DNA of 64,000 bases, taken from IMG/VR virus record IMGVR_UViG_2061766007_000442, one strand, 5' to 3'. The position numbers were made by a program, and so were the translations under genes. This DNA comes from an uncultured virus (IMG/VR IMGVR_UViG_2061766007_000442) (Duplodnaviria; Heunggongvirae; Uroviricota; Caudoviricetes). This document shows positions 1-60,900 of the stretch, one piece after another. The notes beneath the pieces were generated by a model. It was not told where the DNA came from, made no database searches, and saw nothing but the letters and a program-made list of their open reading frames with translations. Within the stretch, counting starts at the first letter, position 1; each line of letters starts with the position of its first letter.

Positions 1-222
1 GCTCTGCATGGTAAGCCGCTTAGCGGATAATTGCCACAACCGACAAAAATAAATCCGTAAGTCTTTGGGTGAGGTGTCACGGATGAGGGCACAAGAAACT
101 AAAGCAGGAGAAAAACCCGAAAAAAGTTCTTGACTGTCACTAGTTGACATGATATAATTTAGGTAAAGAAAAAGCTAAAGGGGCTTTTTCAAGATAGCCG
201 AAAGGCAGAAAGTAGGTGTACC

Positions 223-576
223 ATGACCAAGAAGAATTCGATGACCCGCGCTGAGGCTCTGCAGAACGCTATTGCACTGTTCCCGTCTGACGCGCCCGAG
301 GTTGAGGTGCTGGACAAGATGCTCCAGTCCATCACGAAGCCCCGCAAGAAGTCCGACGCCCCGAGCAAGGCAAGGGTCGAGAACGAGAAGCTGGCGCAGG
401 ACATGCGCGACGCTATCCAGCGCAACGGCTCGCCCGTCAATGCCAAGTGGATTACCGAGCATGTGCGCGGTATCATGACCACGCAGAAAGCGGCAGCGGT
501 CGCAAGGGTCGGCGTTGAGTTGGGTATCATCAACAAGATTGTTGACGGTCGCAACGTCTCGTACAACGTCTGCTAG
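223..576 (+). CDS. small basic phage protein, probable winged-helix DNA-binding (paralog of 6521..6904 and 8821..9156)
   Basis: RBS AGGTG, own TTGACT..TATAAT promoter (130-158), shared TKPR...EN..LA...AKW.TEHVRG..TTQKAAAV motif. Confidence 0.7.
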   Translation: MTKKNSMTRAEALQNAIALFPSDAPEVEVLDKMLQSITKPRKKSDAPSKARVENEKLAQDMRDAIQRNGSPVNAKWITEHVRGIMTTQKAAAVARVGVELGIINKIVDGRNVSYNVC

Positions 577-580
577 TCCT

Positions 581-630
581 TGCCCCGCCGGGCGGTGTAA
601 AAGCCGCCCGGCAAGGCGGGGCAAAAAAAA
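581..630 (+). terminator. GC-rich hairpin terminator
   Basis: TGCCCCGCC...GGCGGGGCA inverted repeat right after the stop codon, followed by an A-tract. Confidence 0.55.
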
Positions 631-719
631 TTTAAAAAAGTTTCAGAAAACCTCTTGACAAACTAGGGTCGAGGGGTTATTCTATTATTGTAAGGTAAGA
701 CAAAGAAAGGGGTTTACAA

Positions 720-899
720 ATGTTTGAAGTGTTCGCAGAATTCGACCTTTTGTGGTATGGTTTCGCAGAAGCCTACTATCAGGGCAAGAACTACGAAGAT
801 TGCAAGGCACAAGTCGTGCAAGCCTTGGAGACGTGCGGCGGGGGACATGCTGACATGTTTAACGCAGACGGGGAATTCATCGACGACGTGGAGGTGTAA
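720..899 (+). CDS. hypothetical 59 aa acidic protein (MFEVFAEFDLLWYG...)
   Basis: read by hand; AAGGGG RBS and TTGACA promoter upstream; TAA stop. Confidence 0.6.
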   Translation: MFEVFAEFDLLWYGFAEAYYQGKNYEDCKAQVVQALETCGGGHADMFNADGEFIDDVEV

Positions 900-1259
900 A
901 AAATTTTAAAAAATTTTCAAAAAAGCCCTTGCATTAGCAGGGGCTTTATGCTATTATTAAACCATAGAAAGAGGGATGCAGTCGAACCAAAGGCTGAGCA
1001 GGTTCACGAGGAGTCCGTTCAAAAAAAAAAAAAAAAAANNNNNNNNNNCTGCTGGATATTTGCGAGAAGTTCGCCGCCCTTGGCTTTGTTATCGGTGTCA
1101 TTAGCTGGACTGCCAAGAATGGCACAAAGGAATACAATAAAGCCGTTCGCGCCGCTAAAAGGGCTTGGCTCGATGCNNNNNNNNNNAAAAAGTACTTGAC
1201 ACACTCCAACAGATAGCCTACAATATCATTGTAAGGTTAAAGAAAGAAAGGGGCAAAAA

Positions 1260-1460
1260 ATGGCATTGTTCGTAACTGCAATTATCGTCATGGCTATGAC
1301 GGCTATTCCGGTCTACAACCTTATGGAGATTCCGTTTATGCGGCTTAGCAAGAAGCGCGGTCGTTACATTAAGACGGATATTCCCGTTTGGAAGTTCGCC
1401 GCCGTTCTGCTCATCGTCGCCGGTATCGTTGCCATTGTTCAGGCGTGGGCAATCTTCTAA
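1260..1460 (+). CDS. small membrane protein
   Basis: two hydrophobic segments, AAGGGG RBS, own promoter. Confidence 0.6.
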   Translation: MALFVTAIIVMAMTAIPVYNLMEIPFMRLSKKRGRYIKTDIPVWKFAAVLLIVAGIVAIVQAWAIF

Positions 1461-1551
1461 AAAAAGAATAAAGATTTTTCAAGAAAACCCCTTGCGAGGG
1501 GTTTTTCTTTGTGCTAAAATAGAAGTGTCAAGTTAAAGAAAGGGGTATCTA

Positions 1552-2022
1552 ATGAACGCGATTTATTTTGACATGGACGGGACTATTGCAGACCTTTACA
1601 ACGTCAATGGCTGGTTGGAGAAACTGCAAGCTAGCGACGTAACGCCCTATGAGGATGCTGCACCGCTGGTTGACATGCGGGAATTGCTGGACATTTGCGA
1701 GAAGTTCGCCGCCCTCGGCTTTGTTATCGGTGTCATTAGCTGGACTGCCAAGAATGGCACGAAGGAATACAATAAAGCCGTTCGCGCCGCTAAAAGGGCT
1801 TGGCTCGATGCTCATTTTCCGTGTGTTGACGAACTCCACGTAGTGAAGTATGGAACACCTAAGCACCGTACCGCCAAGATTAAAGGGGCTATTCTCGTTG
1901 ATGATAATGCGGACGTGCGCAAGGCTTGGGAAAGGTACACCGAAGAAAATTGCACGGTTGATGCAAGCGAACCTAAAAATCTTTTGGAAAATTTGCAAAA
2001 AGTACTTGACATGGTAGCGTAA
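1552..2022 (+). CDS. HAD-superfamily phosphatase (5'-nucleotidase-like)
   Basis: FDMDGT motif I, ILVDD motif IV; partial duplicate allele at 1049-1176. Confidence 0.75.
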   Translation: MNAIYFDMDGTIADLYNVNGWLEKLQASDVTPYEDAAPLVDMRELLDICEKFAALGFVIGVISWTAKNGTKEYNKAVRAAKRAWLDAHFPCVDELHVVKYGTPKHRTAKIKGAILVDDNADVRKAWERYTEENCTVDASEPKNLLENLQKVLDMVA

Positions 2023-2074
2023 ATGCGCTACCATGTTAATGTAAGATTAAACCTTAAAAAGAAAGGAAAACATC

Positions 2075-2320
2075 ATGAAGCGTTATTACACTATCCATTT
2101 CTTTTACTACCTGCCGGACGGCAAAATCGGGTTCATGCCCATGTATCAGCACGTCCGCACGACTGCCGTCGATGCGCTGGCACTCATGCAGGATGCCTAC
2201 TTCAATGACCCTACCGGCTACCCCATCGCAGGAGTGCAGATGTATCAGCAGCGCCGCCCCGGTGGGTATGTCAAACTGTTTTTCGGCGTCGGGGCTAACT
2301 CCTGCGACGTAGCACTGTAA
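2075..2320 (+). CDS. hypothetical protein
   Basis: AAGGA RBS, followed by terminator AAAGCCCGC-GCAA-GCGGGCTTTTT. Confidence 0.6.
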   Translation: MKRYYTIHFFYYLPDGKIGFMPMYQHVRTTAVDALALMQDAYFNDPTGYPIAGVQMYQQRRPGGYVKLFFGVGANSCDVAL

Positions 2321-2877
2321 AGCCCGCGCAAGCGGGCTTTTTCTTTTGCGTTAAAAAAGTTAACCTAGCCTAACTTGGCCGAAAAAATTTTACCACCACC
2401 ACAAGCAAATTTCAAGTTACTGTTGGTTTCATTATGAAACTATGAGTTGTGCCCAAAACGTAAGTTTTTTTCAAAAAGTAGTTGACATGCGCCCCCGTAT
2501 CCCTATAATTAGTAGTGTAAGAAAGATAAAGAAAGGGGCTTGCAAATGACCATCAAGACTAACAAGGGCAACAAGAAGCACATCAAGTTTGTCGAAAATC
2601 TCCAGCTTCTCGGCCTTGCCCTTACCATCATGGGACAGGTTCTCGTGCGTTTCGACCTCGCCCTTACCGCACAGACCATCTGGCTGGTTGCAAACATTAT
2701 CGCTCTCGGTAGGGACTTCTACCTCGAAAGGCCGTGGGCGGACAAAATCAAGAACGCCGCATTGACCGGTATTACTCTTGCNNNNNNNNNNCTAAGTTTT
2801 TTTCAAAAAGTAGTTGACACACGCCCCCGTATCACTATAATTAGTAGTGTAAGAAAGATAAAGAAAGGGGTTCACAA

Positions 2878-3144
2878 ATGACCATCAAGACCAACAAGGG
2901 CGACAAGAAGCACATCAAGTTCGTCGAAAATCTCCAGCTTCTCGGCCTCGCCCTTACCATCATGGGACAGGTTCTCGTGCGTTTCGACCTCGCCCTCACC
3001 GCACAGACCATTTGGCTGGTTGCCAACATTATCGCCCTCGGTAGGGACTTCTACCTCGAACGCCCGTGGGCGGACAAAATCAAGAACGCCGCATTGACCG
3101 GTATTACTCTTGCTCTTATTATTAGCCTTATTGTTATGGGTTAG
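2878..3144 (+). CDS. small membrane protein (second allele at 2546-2781)
   Basis: three hydrophobic segments; near-identical copy before a 10-N gap. Confidence 0.6.
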   Translation: MTIKTNKGDKKHIKFVENLQLLGLALTIMGQVLVRFDLALTAQTIWLVANIIALGRDFYLERPWADKIKNAALTGITLALIISLIVMG

Positions 3145-3156
3145 GAGGTGTTACAA

Positions 3157-3321
3157 ATGTATGTGTATTTGATTTCCTATCTGCTAAATGCAGAAACCTA
3201 CTACGGTGACCCAGTGCGCGGATATTATGGAATGGTTTTTAGCACTAAAGCAAAAGCACAAAAGGTAGCCGAAGCTAACAATCTCGAAGATTACAAAATC
3301 GTTGCCAAGAAAGTACATTAA
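3157..3321 (+). CDS. hypothetical 54 aa protein
   Basis: GGAGGTG RBS, followed by a hairpin terminator (3325-3355). Confidence 0.55.
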   Translation: MYVYLISYLLNAETYYGDPVRGYYGMVFSTKAKAQKVAEANNLEDYKIVAKKVH

Positions 3322-3439
3322 AAGAAAAACCCGCCACGCAGGCGGGTTTTTTCTTGCCCCTTATTATCCTCAAAAAAGAATAAAAAAATTCTCACAAAAA
3401 CCCTTGCATTGCACTTTAAAACATGCTACAATGAAAGGG

Positions 3440-3900
3440 GACGACTATGGCCGAAAAATTTTGTTAGCCTAGGTTAACTTTTTTCACTTTAGCACAGTAG
3501 AGTGATAGAGTGCGGTCGAAAATTTCCTACTAAGCAGGTGGGTATTATTTTCACTTTAGCGCAGTAGAGTATTAGAGTTGTGGAGATTTTGTGAACCTAT
3601 TGACTTGCGTCGCATACTATGGTATTTTGGTATCGGGGGATACTGCCAACCGAACAAATGTTCGATAGTTGTTCGAGAATAATTTAATCCTACTAACCTA
3701 GTAGGTAGGGCACTTTAGCGCAGTAGAGTATTAGAGCATTAAAGCGATGCCCGCACAGAATAATGTTATGCCGTTTTGGAATAACTATTATGCACTTTTG
3801 GAATAGCATCATTCCAAGAGAATAAACAACCTATGCTTTCACAATGCAACCTAAAGTATCACAACTATTTTCTGTATTTTCTTGACGTGCGGGCGGTACT
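3440..3900. promoter_or_regulatory. non-coding operator tract 1 (GTTAGCCTAGGTTAAC, LexA box 3651-3664, other palindromes and repeats)
   Basis: no credible ORF; dense palindromes that recur in tracts 2 and 3. Confidence 0.6.
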
Positions 3901-4425
3901 ACTGTANNNNNNNNNNTTTATTATCCTCAAAAAAGAATAAAAAAAATCTCACAAAAACCCTTGCATTACACTTTAAAACATGCTACAATGGAAGGGGACG
4001 ACTATGGCCGAAAAATTTTGTTAGCCTAGGTTAACTTTTTTNNNNNNNNNNNNNNNNNNNNNNNNNNNNNNNNNNNNNNNNNNNNNNNNNNNNNNTAATG
4101 TTATGCCGTTTTGAAATAGCTGTTATGCACTTTTGGAATAACATCATTCCAAGAGAATAAACAACCTATGCTTTCACAATGCAACCCAAAGTATCACGAC
4201 TATTTTCTGTATTTTCTTGACGTGCGGGCAGTACTACTGTACTATTTANNNNNNNNNNATAGCTGTTATGCACTTTTGGAATAGCATCATTCCAAGAGAA
4301 GAAACAACCTATGCTTTCACAATGCAACCCAAATTATCACAACTATTTTCTGTATTTTCTTGACGTGCGGGCGGTACTACTGTACTATTTAAGGTGTAAA
4401 GTTCAACTATTGAAAGGGGTTTTAA

Positions 4426-5466
4426 ATGGCTAAGCGTTATTACATGATTCTGGACTGCGAGACGATTACCGACGCGCGGGTGCCTTATGACGTGGCATTT
4501 GTCCTTATCGACCGTGCGGGTAACGTCATCGAGCGGTTCAACGCATTGACCGCCGAGGTTATGAACGATGCAACGCTGCGCTACATCCTCAAGAAAGACC
4601 GCTACACCGCGCACAAGGCTGGATTCTACCTCACGAACACGCCCGCCGAGGTTATGCCCTTCACGCAAATTGCCGCGCATGTGTGGGCGGTTATCCGCGC
4701 GTTTGATGCGGTCGTTGTCGCTTACAACGTGGCATTCGACCGTGGCGCGCTCAACGCCTACAGTCGCACGATTGACGGCTGCGACTTTTTCCCCGAGGAN
4801 NNNNNNNNNACACAAAGCAGGGTTCTACCTCACGAACACGCCCGCCGAGGTTATGCCCTTTACCCAAATCGCCGCGCATGTGTGGGCGGTTATCCGTGCA
4901 TTTGATGCGGTCGTTGTTGCTTATAACGTGGCGTTCGACCGTGGCGCGCTCAACGCCTACAGCCGCACGATTGACGGCTGCGACTTTTTCCCCGAGGATT
5001 GCATCATCTGGGACATGTGGACGATGGCATTGTACACCGTTTGCGCTAGCCGCAACTATGCCAACTACTGCGACACTCACGGGATGCACACGGACAAGGG
5101 CAACCGTAAAAGCGGCGCGGAAGCCGTTTACTCCTACCTCGTGGGCAATCCCGAGTTCGAGGAAGCGNNNNNNNNNNCATGTGGACGATGGCGCTCTACA
5201 CCGTTTGCGCTAGCCGCAACTATGCCAACTACTGCGATGCTCACGGGATGCACACGGACAAGGGCAACCGCAAAAGCGGCGCGGAAGCCGTTTACTCCTA
5301 CCTCGTGAATAATCCCGAATTTGAGGAAGCGCATACCGCCCTCGCCGACTGCGAGATTGAGGTGCAAATTTTCCTCGCCATTCTCGCCCGCAAAAAGAAG
5401 CTGCACACCGATGAGTGCGGGGGCGTGAGGTATCGCAAGCCGTGGCGCGAATATCTGCAAGTCTAA
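4426..5466 (+). CDS. DEDDh 3'-5' exonuclease (DnaQ-like); one gene split into overlapping allelic pieces by gaps
   Basis: ExoI LDCET, ExoII AYNVAFD, ExoIII HTALAD motifs. Confidence 0.8.
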
Positions 5467-5499
5467 AGACAAAAGCCCGCCGCTAAGGCGGGCTTTTTG

Positions 5500-6420
5500 T
5501 TTGTCTAGGCACTTTAACGCTTTAGTGTGCTAAAGCGCCGTCTGAGGTCGAAAAAAAGTTAACCACGGCTAACATTTTCAAAACGTCTGATAAAACATCT
5601 TATGTAAAGTAATGAAATGCCCAAAACACAACATCTAGTATTATTCTCGCTCCAGGACACACTACATCTTGTGGTCGGCCGCACAATTCCAGATAAAACA
5701 TCTTATGTAAAGTAATATCAGGCACTCCACCGCAGTAGAGTGCTGTAGTGGGTCGAAAAAAAGTTAACCGTGGCTAACAAATTTCGATGCAACTAACGGT
5801 TTCACTATTCAACCGATATTACACGCCTAAAACCTTGCAATAATTTTGCAACCTGCTAGAATGGGTATCGGGGGGTCTAAATTCTTTATTCTCGNNNNNN
5901 NNNNTTTTCCAGATAAAACATCTTATGTAAAGTAATGGAGTTATGCAACCGATGGTTTCATCATGCAACTAATATTACCTTGCAATAATTTTGTAACCTG
6001 CTAGAATGGGTATCGGGGGGTCTAAATTCTTTATTCTCAGACAAGAATAATCTCGTTTGAGAATAATACTCCAGCGCACTAAAGTGCGATAGTGGAACAT
6101 ATGAACACACGTTCACATGAAAAATTTTCACAGTTTTTCCACAGGGGTGTGAATAATTCACGTTTTTGCATATTCACGGTTTTGCATATTTTCTTTATTC
6201 TCAAAATAGATGTAAGATTCTCAAAAAAAATTTTTTTTGCATAGAAAACTTCGTTTAATCGCTCAAATGAATAANNNNNNNNNNTTCTCAAAATAGATGA
6301 AAGATTCTCGAAAAAATTTTTTTTGCATAGAAAACTTCGTTTAATCGCTCAAATGAATAAAATGCGCCCGGCTAAAAGTCCGGATTGCATAAACGCACCT
6401 ATTTCATGCAGTTTCGCACG
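5500..6420. promoter_or_regulatory. non-coding operator tract 2 (dif-like sites, NrdR box pair, DnaA boxes, GTTAAC-N5-CTAAC)
   Basis: dif-like 5583-5610, 5686-5713, 5906-5933; NrdR-like 5626-5641 and 5659-5674; DnaA-like 6135-6143 and 6148-6156. Confidence 0.65.
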
Positions 6421-6520
6421 GTTGCAATATCCCCCCGTTATGGTACTCTAATATTGTCGAAGGGGGGTTCCCCAAGGGGCGCAAGGGCGCCCGCCCGCCC
6501 GCGACAGGAAGGGGCTTGCC

Positions 6521-6904
6521 ATGACCAAGACCACCGCCATCACCCGTGCCGACGCTCTCGCCATCGCTGTGGAGTTCATCCTCAGGGATAACTACTTCGA
6601 CGATGCGGGCAACGACCGCACCAACGAGGTCGTGGACGTGCTCACCAAGATGCACACGGCCATCACCAAGCCGCGCACCAAGCGCGAGGGCCCGACCAAG
6701 GCCCGCACGGAAAACGAGCGGCTCGCCCGCGAGCTTGCCGCCGTCATCCCGGACGGTGGCGAGGTTACCGCCAAGTGGGTGACCGAGCACGTCCGTGGCG
6801 TGCTCACGACCCAGAAGGCCGCCGCCGTTGCCCGTGTGGGTATCGACCTCGGTATCATCGCCAAGGTCGTGGACGGTCGCAAGGTGACCTACCGCCGCGC
6901 CTAG
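6521..6904 (+). CDS. small basic DNA-binding-like phage protein (paralog of 223..576)
   Basis: high similarity to 223..576; very GC3-rich codons; GGGGGGG-CGAAAG-CCCCCCC hairpin downstream. Confidence 0.7.
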   Translation: MTKTTAITRADALAIAVEFILRDNYFDDAGNDRTNEVVDVLTKMHTAITKPRTKREGPTKARTENERLARELAAVIPDGGEVTAKWVTEHVRGVLTTQKAAAVARVGIDLGIIAKVVDGRKVTYRRA

Positions 6905-6949
6905 TGCGCAGGGGGGGCGAAAGCCCCCCCGACCACCCACCGGAAGGGG

Positions 6950-7645
6950 CGAACATTTGTTCGCCCCTTTCCTTATTCTCGTTTGAGGATATCGAACAAA
7001 TGTTCGACTGAGGTCGAAATTTTACCACAAACTCGCACAAAAAACAAGTCTCCATCGGTGAACGGTAGGAAAACGTCGGTGAACGGTTCCCAAAAAACGG
7101 CTGATAAAATATCTTATGTAAAGTAATGTTATGCAGTACCGCCGCATATTTACCCGTTTTTATTCATTCTATTGAATATTATCGACNNNNNNNNNNATGC
7201 AAGAATATCGAACAAATGTTCGACTGAGGTCGAAATTTTACCACAAACTCGCACAAAAACAATCCCCTAGCCGGTGAACGGTAGGAAAACGTCGGTGAAC
7301 GGTTCCCAAAAAAACGGCTGATAAAATATCTTATGTAAAGTAATGTTATGCACTACCGCCGCATATTTACCCGTTTTTATTCGTTCTGTTGGATATTATC
7401 GAGGTTTTATGCATTTATCGTGACAAAGTCACGATAAAGCATCTTATGTAAACTAGTGTACTCTACTGTGCTAAAGCGTAAGTTAGACACGGCTAACTTT
7501 TGCGTGTGCANNNNNNNNNNCTTTTATGCATTTATCGTGACGAAGTCACGATAAAGCATCTTATGTAAACTAGTGCGCTCTACTGTGCTAAAGCGATGAC
7601 GTGTGCAATCGAACAAATGTTCGATATCGAACAGATGTTCGCCCC
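6950..7645. promoter_or_regulatory. non-coding operator tract 3 (LexA boxes, dif-like sites)
   Basis: CGAAC-N4-GTTCG at 6950, 6993, 7610, 7628; dif-like at 7097-7124 and 7427-7454 (plus allelic duplicates). Confidence 0.65.
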
Positions 7646-7945
7646 GGACGGCCGCGATCTGGACGCGCGCCTATACGCCCCTTTTTCCGAGATCTGCGGG
7701 CTATACGCGATTTTGCTGTAATTTTCCCAAAACTGGACAATTTATAAATTTCCCCTTGACAGAACACAGATTTTATGATATAATTTAATTAGTATATTTT
7801 TTTTTAAAAAAAAATTTTTTTCTATACGGCGCGTTTTCCTATTTTTCAAGCGCATAAAAAAAGAGGACGTCCTATACAGGACGCCCTCCGAGAAAGGGGC
7901 TGGGGCGTGCCATGACTCACGCCCCATATGAAAGGGGTAACTCAC

Positions 7946-8712
7946 CTAAGCCTTCGGCTTACGCTTCTTGCTCAGGGTAAGCTCGTACTTGTCCTCTCCG
8001 ATGGAGAAGGCAATCATACGCTCGATGTTGGTCACTTCCACACTGTGGATATTGTTCAGTACGGTATCACCGTGACCAAACTCGTCAAGCGTCTCCTTGA
8101 ACATCTGAATCAATGCACGCTTAACCTCGTCCGGCTTGCGGGTCGGCTTCTTGCGCGTGGTGCCCTTCGCACGGACGCCCGCACCATTAGCNNNNNNNNN
8201 NNNNNNNNNNNNNNNNNNNNNNNNNNNNNNNNNNNNNNNNNNNNNNNNNNNNNNCTTGCGGCCCTGCACGAACACGCTGTCGGGGATGTTAATGGTCTTC
8301 TCAGAACCGTTCTCAGTGGTGAAGGTATANNNNNNNNNNCACGGTATCACCGTGACCAAACTCGTCAAGCGTCTCCTTGAACATCTGAATCAGTGCACGC
8401 TTGACCTCGTCCGGCTTGCGAGTCGGCTTCTTGCGCGTGGTGCCCTTCGCACGGACGCCCGCACCATTAGCNNNNNNNNNNACGGGTCGGCTTCTTACGC
8501 GTGGTGCCCTTCGCACGGACGCCCGCACCATTAGCCTTAGCCTTCTGGGTCAGCTCTGCCACGGTAGGATCAATAATATAACCCTCATCACTAAGATAAC
8601 GCTCGATCGTCTCGCGGTTGCTCAGGCCCTCTTTGCGGCCCTGCGCGAACACGCTATCGGGGATGTTAATGGTCTTCTCAGAACCGTTCTCAGTGGTGAA
8701 GGTATACTTCAT
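7946..8712 (-). CDS. hypothetical basic protein (~140 aa), fragmented and duplicated by gaps
   Basis: pieces join as MKYTFTTENG...KKPTRKPDEVKRALIQ...LSKKRKPKA; GGAG RBS. Confidence 0.6.
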
Positions 8713-8820
8713 AATGTCTTACTCCTTGTCATGGCTAGCACTGTTCAGTATATGCGTGGTGGGGAGTGTCCCTAGCCACTCCCCGCACCCTCTTAACCGC
8801 TAGGGCGGTGTTGCCTATTG

Positions 8821-9156
8821 CTAGGCGATGACGAACGTCGCCGGGTCGTTCTTGCCCTCACCCTCGGTGCGGATGACGATGCCCTCACCAACGAGCCAGC
8901 GGAGAGCCGCGGCCATCTTCTGGTGGGAGACACCCAGAGCACCGGAGAGCTCCTTGTTGGTCATCGGACCCTCAGCGTCGGACAGGTAGGTCGCGACGGC
9001 ACCGCGGAACTCCACGACCTCGGGCTTGGTCTTGTGGACGCGGGGCTTGCTCAGCTGCTTGATGTACTTCTCGCACATCTCGACAACCTGCGGGTCGTCG
9101 TTCATCGTCTCGGCGATGCGGTGGAACAGGTCCTTGCGGGTGATCTTCTCAGCCAT
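8821..9156 (-). CDS. small winged-helix/HTH DNA-binding-like protein
   Basis: MTNKELSGALGVSHQKMAAALRWL HTH-like segment; distant paralog of 223..576. Confidence 0.6.
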   Translation of the reverse strand: MAEKITRKDLFHRIAETMNDDPQVVEMCEKYIKQLSKPRVHKTKPEVVEFRGAVATYLSDAEGPMTNKELSGALGVSHQKMAAALRWLVGEGIVIRTEGEGKNDPATFVIA

Positions 9157-9808
9157 TTTCTTTCTCCTTTTCTGCCCCTTTTTGAGGCTCCTTATTTTCA
9201 GGGGAGGCCATCCCCCATTTACCAAATTTAGAACTTCCTTAACCTTATATATATATTATAGCTTAAAATTTTTGTTTTGTCTATTATTATTTTCAAGATG
9301 CCTTGTTTAAGAATTTCAAGAGATATGTATTGCTTTTGTTTTCTCTCTCTTTCTTATATATATATTATATCATATAATTTTTGATTTGAAAATGATTTTT
9401 TTTAAATGATTCTTTTTTATTTTAACCCAAAACGAGTTGAAAATGAAAATTTTTTTTCAAGAATGAACTTAAAAATGAAAATTTTTTTTCAAAAATGAAA
9501 ATTTTTCTCAAAGAATCTTCAAGAATTTTTCGCTTTGTTATTCTTTTTTCAAAGTTCTCNNNNNNNNNNNNNNNNNNNNNNNNNNNNNNNNNNNNNNNNN
9601 NNNNNNNNNNNNNNNNNNNNNNNNNNNNNNNNNNNNNNNNNNNNNNNNNNNNNNNNNNNNNNNNNNNNTAAAAATTGGGAATGAAAGTTAAGTAAAAAAA
9701 TCCTTTTTACGGTATCGGATGCGGCGTCGAGCACAAAAATTTTGCCTTGTCATGACATGCCCACCCCAGTTCCACTGGGTAATACAATTTTATGCAACTT
9801 ATATAATT

Positions 9809-26883: not shown

Positions 26884-27208
26884 TGGTGGAGATGCGGAGA
26901 ATCGAACTCCGGTCCAAATAACAATTCTCATAACNNNNNNNNNNNNNNNNNNNNNNNNNNNNNNNNNNNNNNAAACTATACAAAATCTATTTGTATAAAT
27001 CTTAATTTTATATTCTACAAAATAATATAAAATGCAGCTCTTTACTCGAAAAAGATTATAAAACCCAAGAGCAAGATTAAATAATCAAACGGCTAAGCCG
27101 CTAATGCGTATTCAAATTCGCCAATTAAAGTTTAAAATTACCTGATTTACGTGCGGCAGCACGATTCGCAATTATTACAATTGTTATATGTCGAAACCAG
27201 TCATCCCC
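26884..27208 (-). ncRNA. ssrA: tmRNA
   Basis: 5' GGGGATGACTGGTTTCGAC, 3' GGAGTTCGATTCTCCGCATCTCCACCA, tag frame GEFEYALAA-TAG. Confidence 0.9.
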
Positions 27209-28983: not shown

Positions 28984-29948
28984 TTAGTAATTCGTATATA
29001 TGTCTATTGTACCACTGTCGCATCCATCATCATATACTTTACCTTCACCAAATGGTGTATCTACAACACTACCTTTGCCGTGGTCACTAGATGCAACAAC
29101 AACATANNNNNNNNNNTGGTGTATCTACGACACTACCTTTGCCGTGGTCACTAGATGCAACAACAACATATCCATCACTATCATAAATTAAATCATTATC
29201 ACCAACATGCCTACCGGGAATGTTTAATCCACCACCGGGCAACACATTTTGGCTATACCATGTATATCGTGTGCCTCCATCATATATAACGCCTTGACTC
29301 TTAAATGATGAGGGGTCACCATTATAAGACGAACCACCACCGCTATAAGAGCTATCGCTATAACTTGATTGAGAATAATATGATTGCTGTGCGGCCCATG
29401 CAGCCTCAGCTTCTTCTTTAGCTGTTTGAATTTCTTCAACTATAGCTTCAAATGATTTAATCGCTTCTTTTTGTTTATTTACGCTGGTTGAATTTAGAAT
29501 TTGATTTTCTAATTCTCCCATCTGTTTTTCTTGNNNNNNNNNNGGCTTCAGCTTCTTCTTTGGCTGTTTGAATTTCTTCAACTATAGCCTCAAATGATTT
29601 AATCGCTTCTTTTTGTTTATTTACACTGGTTGAATTTAGAATTTGATTTTCTAATTCTCCCATCTGTTTTTCTTGTTCTTCGGTAACGTAGTCACCATAT
29701 TCTTCTTTAACACTTGCTGTGCGGCCGTCATAATCTTCTTTATTCTTTGTATACGCCGCATACCACTTTTCCAGCGTGTCATACCCTTCTAAATCTATGT
29801 GCCGTTCCTTTACGTTCTCAACTGTTAGTTCTGAAGGATATTTTATATCTGTGTCTGCGGTTATAAAGAAATAAGTAATTCCAATTACACCAACAACTAA
29901 AATCGCAATTAGTATTGCTAAAACTTTTTTCATAGATATATACTCCAT
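28984..29948 (-). CDS. membrane-anchored protein with C-terminal 3D-like (lytic transglycosylase-type) domain; fragmented by gaps
   Basis: N-terminal TM, Ser-rich linker, VVVAS...GSVVDTPFG.GKVYD.G...GTIDIY. Confidence 0.6.
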
Positions 29949-57908: not shown

Positions 57909-60900
57909 TTGGCTAGATTTGAGTGTCACGCGCATACACATTTTAGCAATATTAGACTTTTAGATTCCATCAACTTTCCAGAAAAGTTGATTGATAAAGC
58001 TATTGAATTAAATCTTGCAGGTGTCGTCATTACAGATCATGAAAGTCTTGGCGGTCATGTTGTTGTAGATAAGTATAGACAACAAATTATGGAAGAGCAT
58101 CCTGATTTTAAGGTTGCACTTGGTAATGAGATATATCTTGTTGATGACAGAGAGACTGGTCAAAAGTATTATCACTTTATTTTGATTGCAAAAAATGCAA
58201 CTGGTCATAAAATGTTAAGAGAATTATCTTCAACAGCGTGGATTAATAGTTATTATGATAGAGGTCTTGAAAGAGTACCGACTCTTAAGTCTGAACTTGC
58301 GGGTATAGTGAGAAAATATGGAAAAGGTAATTTGATTGCATCTTCCGCATGTCTTGGTTCAGAATTGGATTATTGTATCCTGGAAATGCACACCGCAGAA
58401 CATCTTGGAAATATAGATGGTAAGCGCAAATATTATAATCAGATTTTAGATTTTGTATCTTGGTGCAAAGATATATTTGACGATGATTATTATTTTGAAG
58501 TGCAGCCAGCAAAAAGCAGAGAGCAAATGGTAGTCAACAGCCGCATGAAAGCTCTCGCAGAATATTTTAATGTTAAGATTATTGTAACAACAGATGCTCA
58601 TTATCTTTCAAAAGAAGATAGAGAAGTTCATAAAGCATATTTGAATTCTAAAAATGGCGAACGAGAAGTTGATGCTTTTTATGAGTATGCTTATCTTCAG
58701 TCTACAGAAGATGTAATTGAAAATCTTAAAGGCACTGGATTAGATTATTATGAACTTGAAGCAAACACTTTAGAAATATATAATAAAATTGAAAATTATA
58801 GTCTTGCGCACAAACAGCAGGTGCCGCAAGTCGAAGTTAAAAATTATCCTAAGATTGTATCGTCTCTTGGATATGAAACTTTAGATTATTTGTATCAAAG
58901 TGATGAAATTCAGGAACGATATTGGGTTAATTATTGTATTAATAAACTCAAAGAATTAGGTTTATATAATGATGTTTATCTTCAGCGTCTTGAAGAAGAA
59001 GCAGATATTCAAAAGACAATTGGAGATAAATTAGGTACTTGTATGTTTAGTTATCCTGTATTCCTTCAGCATTATATTAATTTGTTTTGGGAGTGCGGCA
59101 GTACAGTTGGCGCAGGTCGAGGTTCTGCGTGTGCAGGATTGAATCATTATCTTTTGGGTATTACGCAGCTTGACCCGATTAAATATGAACTTCCATATTG
59201 GCGTTTCTTGAATAAAGATCGTGTAGAGCTTCCTGATATTGATATTGATATTTGTCCGTCAAAGCGCGAAGAAATTTTTAGCAAGATTCGTGAAGAGCGT
59301 GGAGCACTTGGATGTGTACAGGTATGCACATATGGAACAGAATCAACTAGGTCAGCAATTGCAACCGCGTGTCGAGGATATAGAAGTAAAGATTTTCCAA
59401 ATGGAATTGATAATGATGTTGCGCAGTATATGACCAGTTTAGCTCCAAGTGAGCGTGGTTTTGTGTGGCCGATACATGATTTGGTATATGGTAATAATGA
59501 AACTGACCGCAAGCCAGTCAAAAATTTTGTTAACGAAGTAAACAAGTATCCAGGATTGTTGGACATTATTGAAAACATTGAAGGATTGATTAACCATCGA
59601 GGTATTCATGCATCTGGTGTAAACTTTTATGATAAAGACCCATATACAACTGCATGTTTTATGAAAGCAACAAGTGGAGCAATTGTAACTCAATATTCAC
59701 TTCATGATGCGGAATATGTAGGTGATGTAAAATATGATTTCTTGGTAACAGAAATTCAGGATGTAATTGTTCAATGTATTAGTATGTTGCAAGAGTATGG
59801 AGAAATTGAACCAGAATTAAGTTTGCATGAAGTATATAATAAGTATATTCATCCTGATGTTCTTCCAATAGAAGATGANNNNNNNNNNCGCAGAATATGT
59901 GGGTGATGTAAAGTATGATTTCTTGGTAACAGAAATTCAGGATGTAATTGTTCAATGTATTAGTATGCTGCAAGAGTATGGAGAAATTGAACCAGAATTA
60001 AGTTTGCACGAAGTATATAATAAGTATATTCATCCTGATGTTCTTCCAATAGAAGATGATAAGATGTGGGATGAACTCGCCGCAGGTAATGTATTGAAGT
60101 TGTTCCAGTTTGATTCACAAGTTGGAAGTCAAACTGTAAAAATGTTGCGGCCGCGCACGCCGAAGGAAATGGCAAACAGTAATAGTTGTATGCGGCTGAT
60201 GGCAACAGAGAAGGGTGGAGAGACACCAACAGAACGATATAAAAGAATGATGAATAATATGCATCTTTGGTATGAAGAATTAAAAAGATGGCATATTAGT
60301 CAGTATGAAACAGAAGTGTTAGAGAAGTATTATCTTCCCACTTATGCGACGCCCGCACAGCAGGAAGATATGATGATGATTTTGATGGATAAAGATATTT
60401 GCGGGTTTACATTAAAAGAAGCTAATGATGCACGAAAGATTTGTGCGAAGAAGCAAATGAATCGTATTGAAGAATTGCATCAAAAAGTTTTAAAGCAAGC
60501 GACTTCTCCGAATATCGGCCCTTATATTTGGGAAACCGCGATTAAGCCGCAGATGGGTTATTCATTTAGTTTAATTCATAGTTTGGCATATAGTTTTGTT
60601 GGTTTGCAAACAATTTATCTTGCTACTTATTTTAATCCTGTCTATTGGAATACTGCATGTTTAAGGGTAGATAGTGGACTTGAAGAAGAAGCAAGTACGA
60701 ACTATGGTAAAATTGCCAAAGCGGTAGGTAATATTATTAATCGTGGTATTGATATGTCATTGATTGATATTAATAAGTCTGGTTATATGTTTGAACCAGA
60801 TGTAGTTAGTGATAGTATTATTTATGGAATGAAAGCATTAAACGGTGTAGGTGGCGAGATTATTCAACAAATTATTGCAGGTCGTCCATACGCAAGTTTA

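Follow-up and report, generated by a model that had tools for sequence, protein, structure and literature searches.

Promoter-rich non-coding tracts with LexA-type boxes and other host-type sites in the GC-rich early block of an uncultured ruminant-gut phage

In an uncultured Caudoviricetes genome (IMG/VR record IMGVR_UViG_2061766007_000442), three tracts of DNA without open reading frames (ORFs) lie between small early-type genes and are crowded with palindromes and repeats, several of which resemble binding sites for bacterial DNA-binding proteins. What are these tracts for? A first-pass annotation of the 64-kb stretch analysed here (the window) took positions 2350–7650 for a panel of sites for many host proteins, acting either as an operator sponge or as a DNA-entry element. 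The reading that we favour, to which we give an even chance on the strength of the sequence, is that the tracts serve as control DNA for an immediate-early module read by host polymerase, with host LexA, perhaps NrdR or Xer, and the winged-helix proteins of the module itself as the binders.

The motif-bearing block measures ~10 kb and sits inside an otherwise AT-rich phage of ~130 kb. From position 1 to ~9300 the genes of the window are small and GC-rich, and each comes with a sigma-70-type promoter, a strong ribosome-binding site and a terminator hairpin; we call this part the early block. A 130.6-kb viral contig, G001 (loci L001, L007 and L008), whose completeness CheckV estimates at 90%, shares both this block and its junction to AT-rich DNA. 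Further relatives came from a metagenome scan that returned 70 loci carrying the winged-helix gene of the block, and the counts of loci given below refer to this set. A stretch nearly identical to the window occurs in contigs of 24 sequencing runs from 17 studies, mostly of cattle, sheep, goat or rumen, a few being labelled only as metagenome or with coded organism names. No relative was found in 185,579 species genomes, and no close DNA relative among 50,697 phage records.

The window itself contains 61 runs of N, and its repetitiveness is in part an artefact of assembly. Six of the ten gaps within 2350–7650 are bordered by unmerged overlaps of 91–100% identity; at the remaining gaps, pieces repeat nearby sequence without abutting the gap (81–98% identical over the aligned part), one of them being an indel variant. 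Similar unmerged overlaps occur at many 10-N gaps elsewhere in the window, coding DNA included (for example 2782–2791, 4800–4809, 29534–29543 and 59879–59888). The overlapping pieces are contig ends of slightly differing strains that the scaffolder placed side by side and left unmerged. Because 1567 of the 5301 bases in the span 2350–7650 are second copies (a further 144 are N), much of the "shuffled mosaic" described by the first-pass annotation is redundancy, which makes up ~30% of the mosaic as seen in the window. The unmerged overlaps are also the reason why the exonuclease and DNA polymerase genes look partly duplicated and why ORF calls across gaps are unreliable. The true layout was taken from L009, a contiguous and near-identical relative of 5.8 kb whose winged-helix protein is 77–80% identical to that of the window.

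In L009 the three ORF-free tracts are real, measuring 596, 638 and 784 bp at 38–44% GC. The corresponding parts of the window are tract A at 3322–3906 (L009 1406–2001), which is followed by redundant copies at 3917–4041, 4096–4248 and 4259–4391; tract B at 5467–6520, with redundant copies at 5905–6038 and 6285–6360; and tract C at 6905–7945, with redundant copies at 7197–7402 and 7521–7595. Whichever frame or strand is translated, the tracts match relatives (68 frames were tested, and genuine ORFs taken as controls matched 6–73 loci), so their conservation is a property of the DNA and not of coding sequence, and the possibility of hidden small genes was rejected for the same reason. The tracts are more conserved than the ORFs of the block, and all exact motif copies in the 64-kb window fall within 2.3–7.7 kb.

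Three motif families lie far above chance when compared with shuffles of the window. CGAAC-N4-GTTCG occurs six times where 0.01 is expected (five unique sites after removal of duplicates), the dif-like core ATAA-N6-TTATGTAAA seven times against 0.02 (four unique), and GTTAR-N6-CTAAC gives seven matches at six places against 0.33 (five unique). These and other families recur in relatives in rearranged order: LexA-type boxes, with 142 copies in 368 kb, are present in 52 of the 70 loci, GTTAAC palindromes in 58, the repeat GGTGARCGGT in 36, the dif-like core in 18 and NrdR-like pairs in seven. The proposed shuffling of motifs is real at the level of the population, as natural variants (below) show, even if much of the repetition within the window is not. 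In G001, all four LexA-type boxes and all eight GTTAAC palindromes lie inside the early block.

The identification of CGAAC-N4-GTTCG as a LexA site holds up, since it equals the published Bacillus and Staphylococcus box, a 14-bp palindrome, CGAACN4GTTCG, given for both B. subtilis and S. aureus in the available text of PMC9578287. All 10 specified bases are kept in the five unique boxes of the window and in 114 distinct sites of relatives, and the latter yield the consensus aatCGAACa..tGTTCGatt. A domain search of G001 detected no LexA DNA-binding domain, no tyrosine recombinase (PF00589) and no ParB_N, which makes host proteins plausible binders. Host LexA would be the simplest binder of a Bacillota SOS box that is perfect and deeply conserved in a phage with no detected LexA domain. 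One box, CGAACAAATGTTCG at 3651–3664, lies at about +16 to +30 of a promoter at 3600; of the others, some lie in a terminator or upstream of promoters and some stand apart from promoters. A terminator hairpin within 6942–7006 encloses one box (6950–6963) and is followed by another (6993–7006), and two boxes stand in tandem at 7610–7623 and 7628–7641. At the place of this LexA-box terminator L009 has a 110-bp insert with 22-bp inverted repeats at its ends (4213–4322), and other runs carry yet another sequence.

The claim that most motifs have no promoter nearby proved wrong. Positions 1–9600 contain 32 sigma-70-like sites, duplicates included, against 11.3 ± 3.2 in shuffles, and several fall within the tracts; what separates the cassettes is a series of stacked promoter-upstream regions together with four promoters that have no gene behind them. 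On our own reading of L009, 4 of ~10 sigma-70-like promoters lack an ORF. Orphan promoters of the window, on the plus strand, are an extended −10 promoter, TTGCAT-17-TGcTACAAT, at 3404–3432, which is the same in L009; TTGACT-17-TATTTT with a TG at 3600–3628, whose transcript would start near ATCGGGGG at 3632; and TTGCAA-16-TAGAAT with a TG at 5835–5862 (duplicated at 5980–6007). A consensus promoter (12/12, with TG; plus strand) at 7756–7784 is aimed into the end of a leftward operon and is inverted in G001. Another consensus promoter (12/12, plus strand) at 2482–2509 serves a small membrane-protein cassette, and its copy at 2814–2841 is an assembly duplicate. Short RNAs were considered as products of the orphan promoters; one of six candidate transcripts folds better than its shuffles (z −4.1; the others −0.9 to +0.44), and the idea was dropped. 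The inversion involves a segment of ~75 bp (7746–7817) with a perfect TTGACA-17-TATAAT that has one orientation in the window and L009 and the other in G001 (L001 3700–3760), with only AAATTT at its borders. Its promoter is directed antisense into the leftward operon in the window, and across the tandem LexA-type boxes in G001; we treat the change as a single evolutionary inversion and not as a switch.

The linkage of the palindromes to promoters is clear, though partial. Positions were counted in 58 non-redundant loci (12 of the 70 were dropped, more than half of their 21-mers being shared with a longer locus), taking motif centres 30–110 bp upstream of a strictly defined −35 element. Of 175 GTTAAC palindromes 60 fall in this interval, where random positions give 20; the corresponding counts are 26 of 119 for LexA-type boxes (random, 11) and 30 of 68 for GGTGARCGGT (random, 6). 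In distant relatives, early genes are preceded by a unit that opens with a terminator and continues with a single or double GTTAAC palindrome, GCCGGC, a LexA-type box (not in every unit) and TGTGGAGG-type repeats before it reaches the promoter. This order was seen in at least 4 of the 17 upstream regions read (L058, L069, L070 and L075) and in further promoter units, with the GTTAAC palindromes 36 bp apart, two TGTGGAGG-type repeats, a TTGACA-17-TATTAT promoter, a leader starting GTCARRGGGG and a ribosome-binding site in a hairpin loop. Because relatives hold GTTAAC and LexA-type palindromes as fixed parts of promoter-upstream regions, the tracts point to cis-regulation rather than to a free-standing decoy. 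These upstream regions are built from short palindromes and repeats, are confined to the block and are conserved in distant relatives, and the stereotyped unit may serve as a marker of early genes in this phage group. In the leaders of distant relatives (L058 4560–4600, L069 and L075), GGAGG lies in the loop of a short hairpin, GGTAC-TAGGAG-GTACC, directly before the start codon.

We propose that the CGAAC-N4-GTTCG boxes would be bound by host LexA, while GTTAAC-N4-GTTAAC palindromes and other phage-specific repeats would be bound by the winged-helix proteins, of which the early module encodes at least three; the winged-helix family is the natural candidate binder of the GTTAAC palindromes. 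Host input may also come through the NrdR-like pair and the dif-like sites, and the joint effect would be the timing, gating or shut-off of early transcription by the state of the host. Were LexA and other host regulators indeed to bind, a large phage of lytic type would be tying its earliest transcription to several stress and cell-cycle sensors of the host simultaneously, more than in phi29, GIL01 and T5, where one or two host factors are known, and the motifs would give a sequence-defined handle on host takeover by uncultured rumen phages.

Several observations weigh against this reading. About two-thirds of the GTTAAC sites and three-quarters of the LexA-type boxes lie outside the interval 30–110 bp upstream of a strictly defined promoter, and a box centred ~50–60 bp upstream of the −35 element is unusual for repression by LexA. 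The dif-like sites show no association with promoters, 1 of 31 falling in the interval against 4 for random positions in the 58 loci. In eight aligned sequences the central four bases of the tandem boxes are nearly fixed, the first being always AAAT and the second AGAT in five of the eight; LexA alone would need no fixed central bases, which hints at a constraint beyond LexA, and the phage winged-helix family, with its invariant recognition helix, would fit the LexA-type box equally well as binder. A Bacillota host, finally, is deduced from no more than expression signals and the nearest cultured-phage polymerases, which are ~41% identical and belong to Enterococcus, Geobacillus, Staphylococcus and Bacillus phages.

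Other host-type sites named by the first-pass annotation are those of dif, NrdR and DnaA type. The dif-like sites are 28 bp long, with two 11-bp arms, a 6-bp centre and the inner symmetry ATAA-N6-TTAT. Two direct copies on the plus strand (5583–5610 and 5686–5713) flank the NrdR-like pair and share 20 and 19 of 28 bases with B. subtilis dif by hand count; two more lie at 7097–7124 and 7427–7454 (plus strand), the right arm of the second, TTATGTAAACT, agreeing with B. subtilis dif at 11 of 11 bases. Overall the right arm shares 10–11 of 11 bases and the whole site 19–20 of 28 in this hand comparison with the dif sequence available from PMC3025954. In relatives the element is conserved as one asymmetric block, TGATAAARYATCTTATGTAAAGTA, which covers the centre and the inner part of the left arm; it always keeps to one strand and mostly comes in pairs. 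There are two to four direct copies per genome, unlike the single-copy dif of chromosomes, and no exact dif-like motif was found in viral contigs. Plasmid Xer sites, such as cer, psi and the pdif modules of Acinetobacter, likewise place multiple dif-like 28-mers on a mobile replicon beside variable modules. They differ from the present case, where all copies are direct and inside non-coding DNA, and where gain and loss of cassettes ends at terminators and not at dif-like sites.

The NrdR-like boxes at 5626–5641 and 5659–5674 (plus strand) each match an NrdR consensus at 15 of 16 bases, with 0.03 pairs expected per window in mononucleotide shuffles. Their 17-bp spacer is within the 14–17 bp described for pairs bound by NrdR in the available text of PMC12051234. 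The pair is placed in tract B, outside any ribonucleotide reductase promoter and 57 kb away from nrdD; what precedes nrdD is a single NrdR-like box matching at 14 of 16 (62553). DnaA boxes had been counted among the components of the array, a part that does not stand, as TTWTNCACA occurs 8 times in the window against 9.16 expected; a trio of DnaA-box-like 9-mers, one with a mismatch, at 6124–6156 is kept in four close loci only. A parS-like site (16-bp palindromic consensus) is absent from the window at up to 3 mismatches. In relatives, parS-like palindromes with the core TTTCACGTGAAA occur at eight sites from four sources (among them L001 644, 1292 and 1776, L011 2736 and 3220, and L016 58), one matching that consensus at 16 of 16 bases and one lying inside an exonuclease gene. 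Two further candidates were discarded: CIRCE, the HrcA operator (inverted 9-bp arms with 9-bp spacing), had no match in the 70 loci at up to 3 mismatches, nor in the window at up to 4, and the 0A box TGTCGAA, with 29 hits on both strands of 379 kb against the ~46 that we calculate for a 7-mer, is not enriched.

What else could the tracts be? In a sponge, rising genome copies would titrate host LexA, NrdR, DnaA and Xer off the chromosome, and SOS and ribonucleotide reductase genes would be derepressed. The perfection of the LexA-type boxes in the window and relatives would suit such a decoy, as would the distance of the NrdR-like pair from any nrd gene, the sites away from promoters (the box in the terminator at 6950 and the tandem pair at 7610/7628) and the lack of a detected phage LexA, recombinase or ParB in G001. 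We nevertheless hold it to be improbable, and less likely than control DNA: the palindromes of relatives keep fixed places upstream of promoters, DnaA boxes are not enriched, about five LexA boxes per genome would bring titration late in infection, when derepression would be of little help, and a paper on phage decoy operators that titrate LexA was not found in the open literature searched. A broader version, to which we assign a small though appreciable chance on sequence grounds, is that a widespread and uncultured group of ~130-kb phages of ruminant-gut Bacillota gathers consensus sites for LexA and, depending on lineage, NrdR, Xer, ParB and DnaA in the non-coding DNA of an early module with its own codon use, and that this panel would read or hijack the SOS, nucleotide-supply and chromosome-cycle state of the host by titration or by recruitment to the first-expressed DNA. 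AT-rich tracts, direct repeats and the small DnaA-like cluster at 6124–6156 could also recall a replication origin built of iterons and DnaA boxes in AT-rich DNA. This we consider very unlikely, as DnaA boxes are not enriched, the cumulative GC skew turns at ~37–38 kb, at the switch in gene orientation beside the replication genes, and the tracts are full of promoters and terminators.

The block might instead be a terminal repeat or first-entering DNA of the T5 kind, in which dif-like pairs and the CTATACGC block would serve for pausing of injection, recognition of ends or binding of terminase. The T5 terminal repeat holds dmp, A1 and A2 along with three conserved untranslated repeat regions, according to the available text of 10.1101/866236, and the present block has a nucleotidase-like gene and three tracts more conserved than its ORFs; in G001 it adjoins the sigma factor, terminase and portal genes and contains both contig ends, and the distant phage phAss-1 carries a nucleotidase homologue and ~25 consensus promoters at the record end chosen by PhageTerm. 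Against this, IMG/VR classes G001 as linear without end repeats, the block is internal in several long contigs, no A1 or A2 homologue turned up (no sequence search for them was made), and contig ends in the block may simply reflect repeats and strain variation. The chance we allow this explanation is small, though not negligible. A slighter chance goes to control of a quiescent episome or of spore entrapment in the manner of phi29 and GIL01, with LexA silencing early promoters, Xer resolving multimers at dif-like sites and ParB segregating the genome. LexA, dif-like and, in relatives, parS-like sites (the eight TTTCACGTGAAA sites above) form a host-type set that matches the toolkit of plasmids and plasmid prophages, G001 has no integrase, and precedents exist in the accessible parts of the phi29 (PMC2731898) and GIL01 (PMC6182141) papers. 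A quiescent element fits poorly, however, with the failure to find any relative in the species genomes, with the lack of a parS-like site in the window and with a replisome, sigma factor and tRNAs of virulent-phage type; nor does G001 contain a tubulin or ParA-like partition NTPase, and active Xer recombination between direct dif-like sites 100–330 bp apart would delete the DNA between them.

Control DNA of an early module, our preferred reading, has its closest analogues in T5, phi29 and GIL01, and host-protein sites on phage DNA have been described before: DnaA boxes of T5, parS and 0A boxes of phi29 and LexA boxes of GIL01 are in print. The comparison with T5 first-step-transfer DNA was apt, given a terminal repeat with three conserved untranslated repeat regions and DnaA boxes (available text of 10.1101/866236). 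As far as that text goes, both phages have non-coding regions of several hundred bp to kb among small pre-early genes that include a deoxyribonucleotidase, both regions are dense in direct and inverted repeats and palindromes, sites for host proteins included, and in both the non-coding DNA is better conserved than the adjoining ORFs. The motifs of T5 are DnaA boxes in fixed order, whereas here they are LexA-type, dif-like and NrdR-like sites and palindromes of no known binder in varying order; in addition, the expression signals here are of Gram-positive type and the codon composition of the block is strikingly unlike that of the remaining genome.

Phages of Bacillota offer further parallels. 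The lytic phages phi29 and Nf carry sites for two host DNA-binding proteins, Spo0A (0A boxes) and Spo0J (parS), near early promoters and DNA ends, and couple infection to the state of the host, as described in the accessible part of PMC2731898. The proteins and motifs differ from those here, and phi29, at 19 kb, has no separate non-coding arrays. In GIL01, host LexA acts together with gp7 at tandem LexA boxes that control phage promoters, and the phage has a LexA homologue, gp6 (available text of PMC6182141). Bacillota-type boxes, some in tandem, are common to both, but GIL01, a temperate linear plasmid prophage of 15 kb, has its boxes inside promoters, whereas the present phage has ~130 kb, carries most of its boxes upstream of promoters or away from them, and yielded no LexA-domain protein in the search. 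Known already, then, are non-coding repeat regions with host-protein sites (T5) and host-factor sites by early promoters of Bacillota phages (phi29, GIL01); not found described in the open literature searched are the phage group, its stereotyped promoter unit, so dense an occurrence of perfect LexA-type boxes in a large phage of lytic type, their combination with NrdR-like and dif-like sites, and the split in codon use set out below.

Codon use sets the early block apart from the rest of the phage. GC content at third codon positions (GC3) is 0.53–0.92 in nine ORFs of the block and 0.14–0.36 in nine ORFs elsewhere in the window. From 9.7 kb on the window is that of an AT-rich large phage, with topoisomerase II, a DnaB-like helicase, primase, RecJ, a PolIII-alpha-type polymerase, NrdD, 17 tRNAs and a call resembling transfer-messenger RNA (tmRNA); the early-block region has no tRNA. 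The early genes may match a GC-richer host and the later ones may depend on the tRNAs of the phage, which would make this an unusually clean example of codon use divided by infection phase, with host-like early genes and an AT-rich remainder that has its own tRNA set. A chimeric scaffold was rejected as the cause, since G001 and five of eight other mapped loci (L014, L029, L030, L038 and L058) show the same GC-rich/AT-rich junction; it is not seen in L009, L044 and L075, and L051 has its AT-rich part on the other side. In G001 the block is formed by both contig ends together, and its far side adjoins the genes for the phage sigma factor, terminase and portal. The early block is like the host-takeover module in the terminal redundancy of SPO1, where small early genes each have a strong host-type promoter, a ribosome-binding site and a terminator; to our knowledge, no arrays of host-type operator motifs have been described there. 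Repeats of TTGAAAATGAAAATTTTTTTT lie at the junction (9380–9520), and junction repeats occur in G001 as well. Homing endonuclease genes of the GIY-YIG and HNH types interrupt the terminase region of G001 (L007 8854–12965).

Genes that could be recognised in the block comprise a nucleotidase-like ORF, a DEDD-like exonuclease, a 117–127-amino-acid family in two copies and a MarR/GntR-like protein. The 127-residue member (6521–6904, plus strand) is predicted to be a winged-helix DNA-binding protein: its AlphaFold2 model (predicted local distance difference test, pLDDT, 87) has a helical N-terminal part and a C-terminal winged helix, and its structural neighbours in Foldseek, weak but consistent at E 0.02–0.09, are the winged helices of ArsR/SmtB, TubR and AspA. 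It has no sequence relative in the PDB and no Pfam hit. The family occurs only in viruses and in the alignment has an invariant TTQKAAAVxR at the start of the recognition helix; a 117-residue paralogue at 223–576 (plus strand), placed in the family by alignment, matches both ends of G001. The leftward operon at 7946–9225 (minus strand) encodes a conserved 140-residue protein and a 134-residue MarR/GntR-like winged-helix protein (8821–9225). The latter (in L001 at 4396–4734, minus strand) has the layout of the 127-residue family, ITR...PEVVE...KPR followed by the winged helix, and on account of this shared layout the block carries at least three members of one winged-helix superfamily. The fold of the 140-residue protein was left unassigned (pLDDT 74.7, best structural match Z 4.7, no Pfam hit).

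Upstream of the tracts, a 5'-deoxyribonucleotidase-like gene for 156 amino acids at 1552–2022 (plus strand) matches phrog_2643 at E 5e-10, its Pfam NT5C score of 20.7 bits being under the cut-off of 24.8. A tblastn search with this ORF against the 50,697 phage records matched three, none of them T5-like. The exonuclease gene at 4426–5466 (plus strand; phrog_20187, E 9e-17) contains duplicated overlaps at 4810–4998 and 5178–5331, and its intact form in L009 (2002–2679) has 225 amino acids.

Besides the sites already placed, GTTAAC-type palindromes stand at 2359–2374, directly after a terminator (2319–2340); at 3463–3478, followed by a T run, where the RNA hairpin is weak (−7.7 kcal/mol, z 0.44); and at 5558–5573 and 5763–5778. 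Tract A has three copies of CTTTAGCRCAGTAGAG on the plus strand (3487, 3554 and 3713, spanning 3487–3728), and tract C has the direct repeat GGTGAACGGT in two copies 21 bp apart (7057–7087, plus strand), of a family present in 36 of the 70 loci. GGYCGAAAA and TTATGCA are further repeat families of the tracts. The most conserved non-coding block, in the alignment of eight sequences, is 7606–7720, where the tandem LexA-type boxes are followed by CTATACGC repeats; conserved RNA structure was rejected for it (covariation term +0.92, 1 of 18 pairs compensatory). Rfam gave no match reaching the gathering score in positions 1–10 kb of the window or in L001, L007 and L009.

Natural variants in contigs of four runs from different studies differ by the presence or absence of whole cassettes, with ends at terminators. 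A module at 5719–5790, which includes the palindrome at 5763–5778 and is present or absent among these variants, is inserted in two runs, and other blocks are replaced. The only named phage found to share a gene of the module is phAss-1, through its nucleotidase homologue. Its record end (L079, 121–136 kb), at the end chosen by PhageTerm, has ~25 near-consensus promoters of the form TTGACAA...TGTGGTACAAT within 12 kb; this end block resembles the early block but has only one GTTAAC palindrome and no LexA-type box. The words promoter, early and terminal repeat are absent from the accessible text of the phAss-1 paper (PMC10607447). Recoding of stop codons as in phAss-1 was considered and set aside, L007 giving no clear sign of it. 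Within the tRNA array of the window, ARAGORN calls a tmRNA at 26884–27208 (tag GEFEYALAA) that spans a run of N at 26935–26972, and in tracts B and C there are A8T8-type palindromes at 6225–6240 and 7796–7820.

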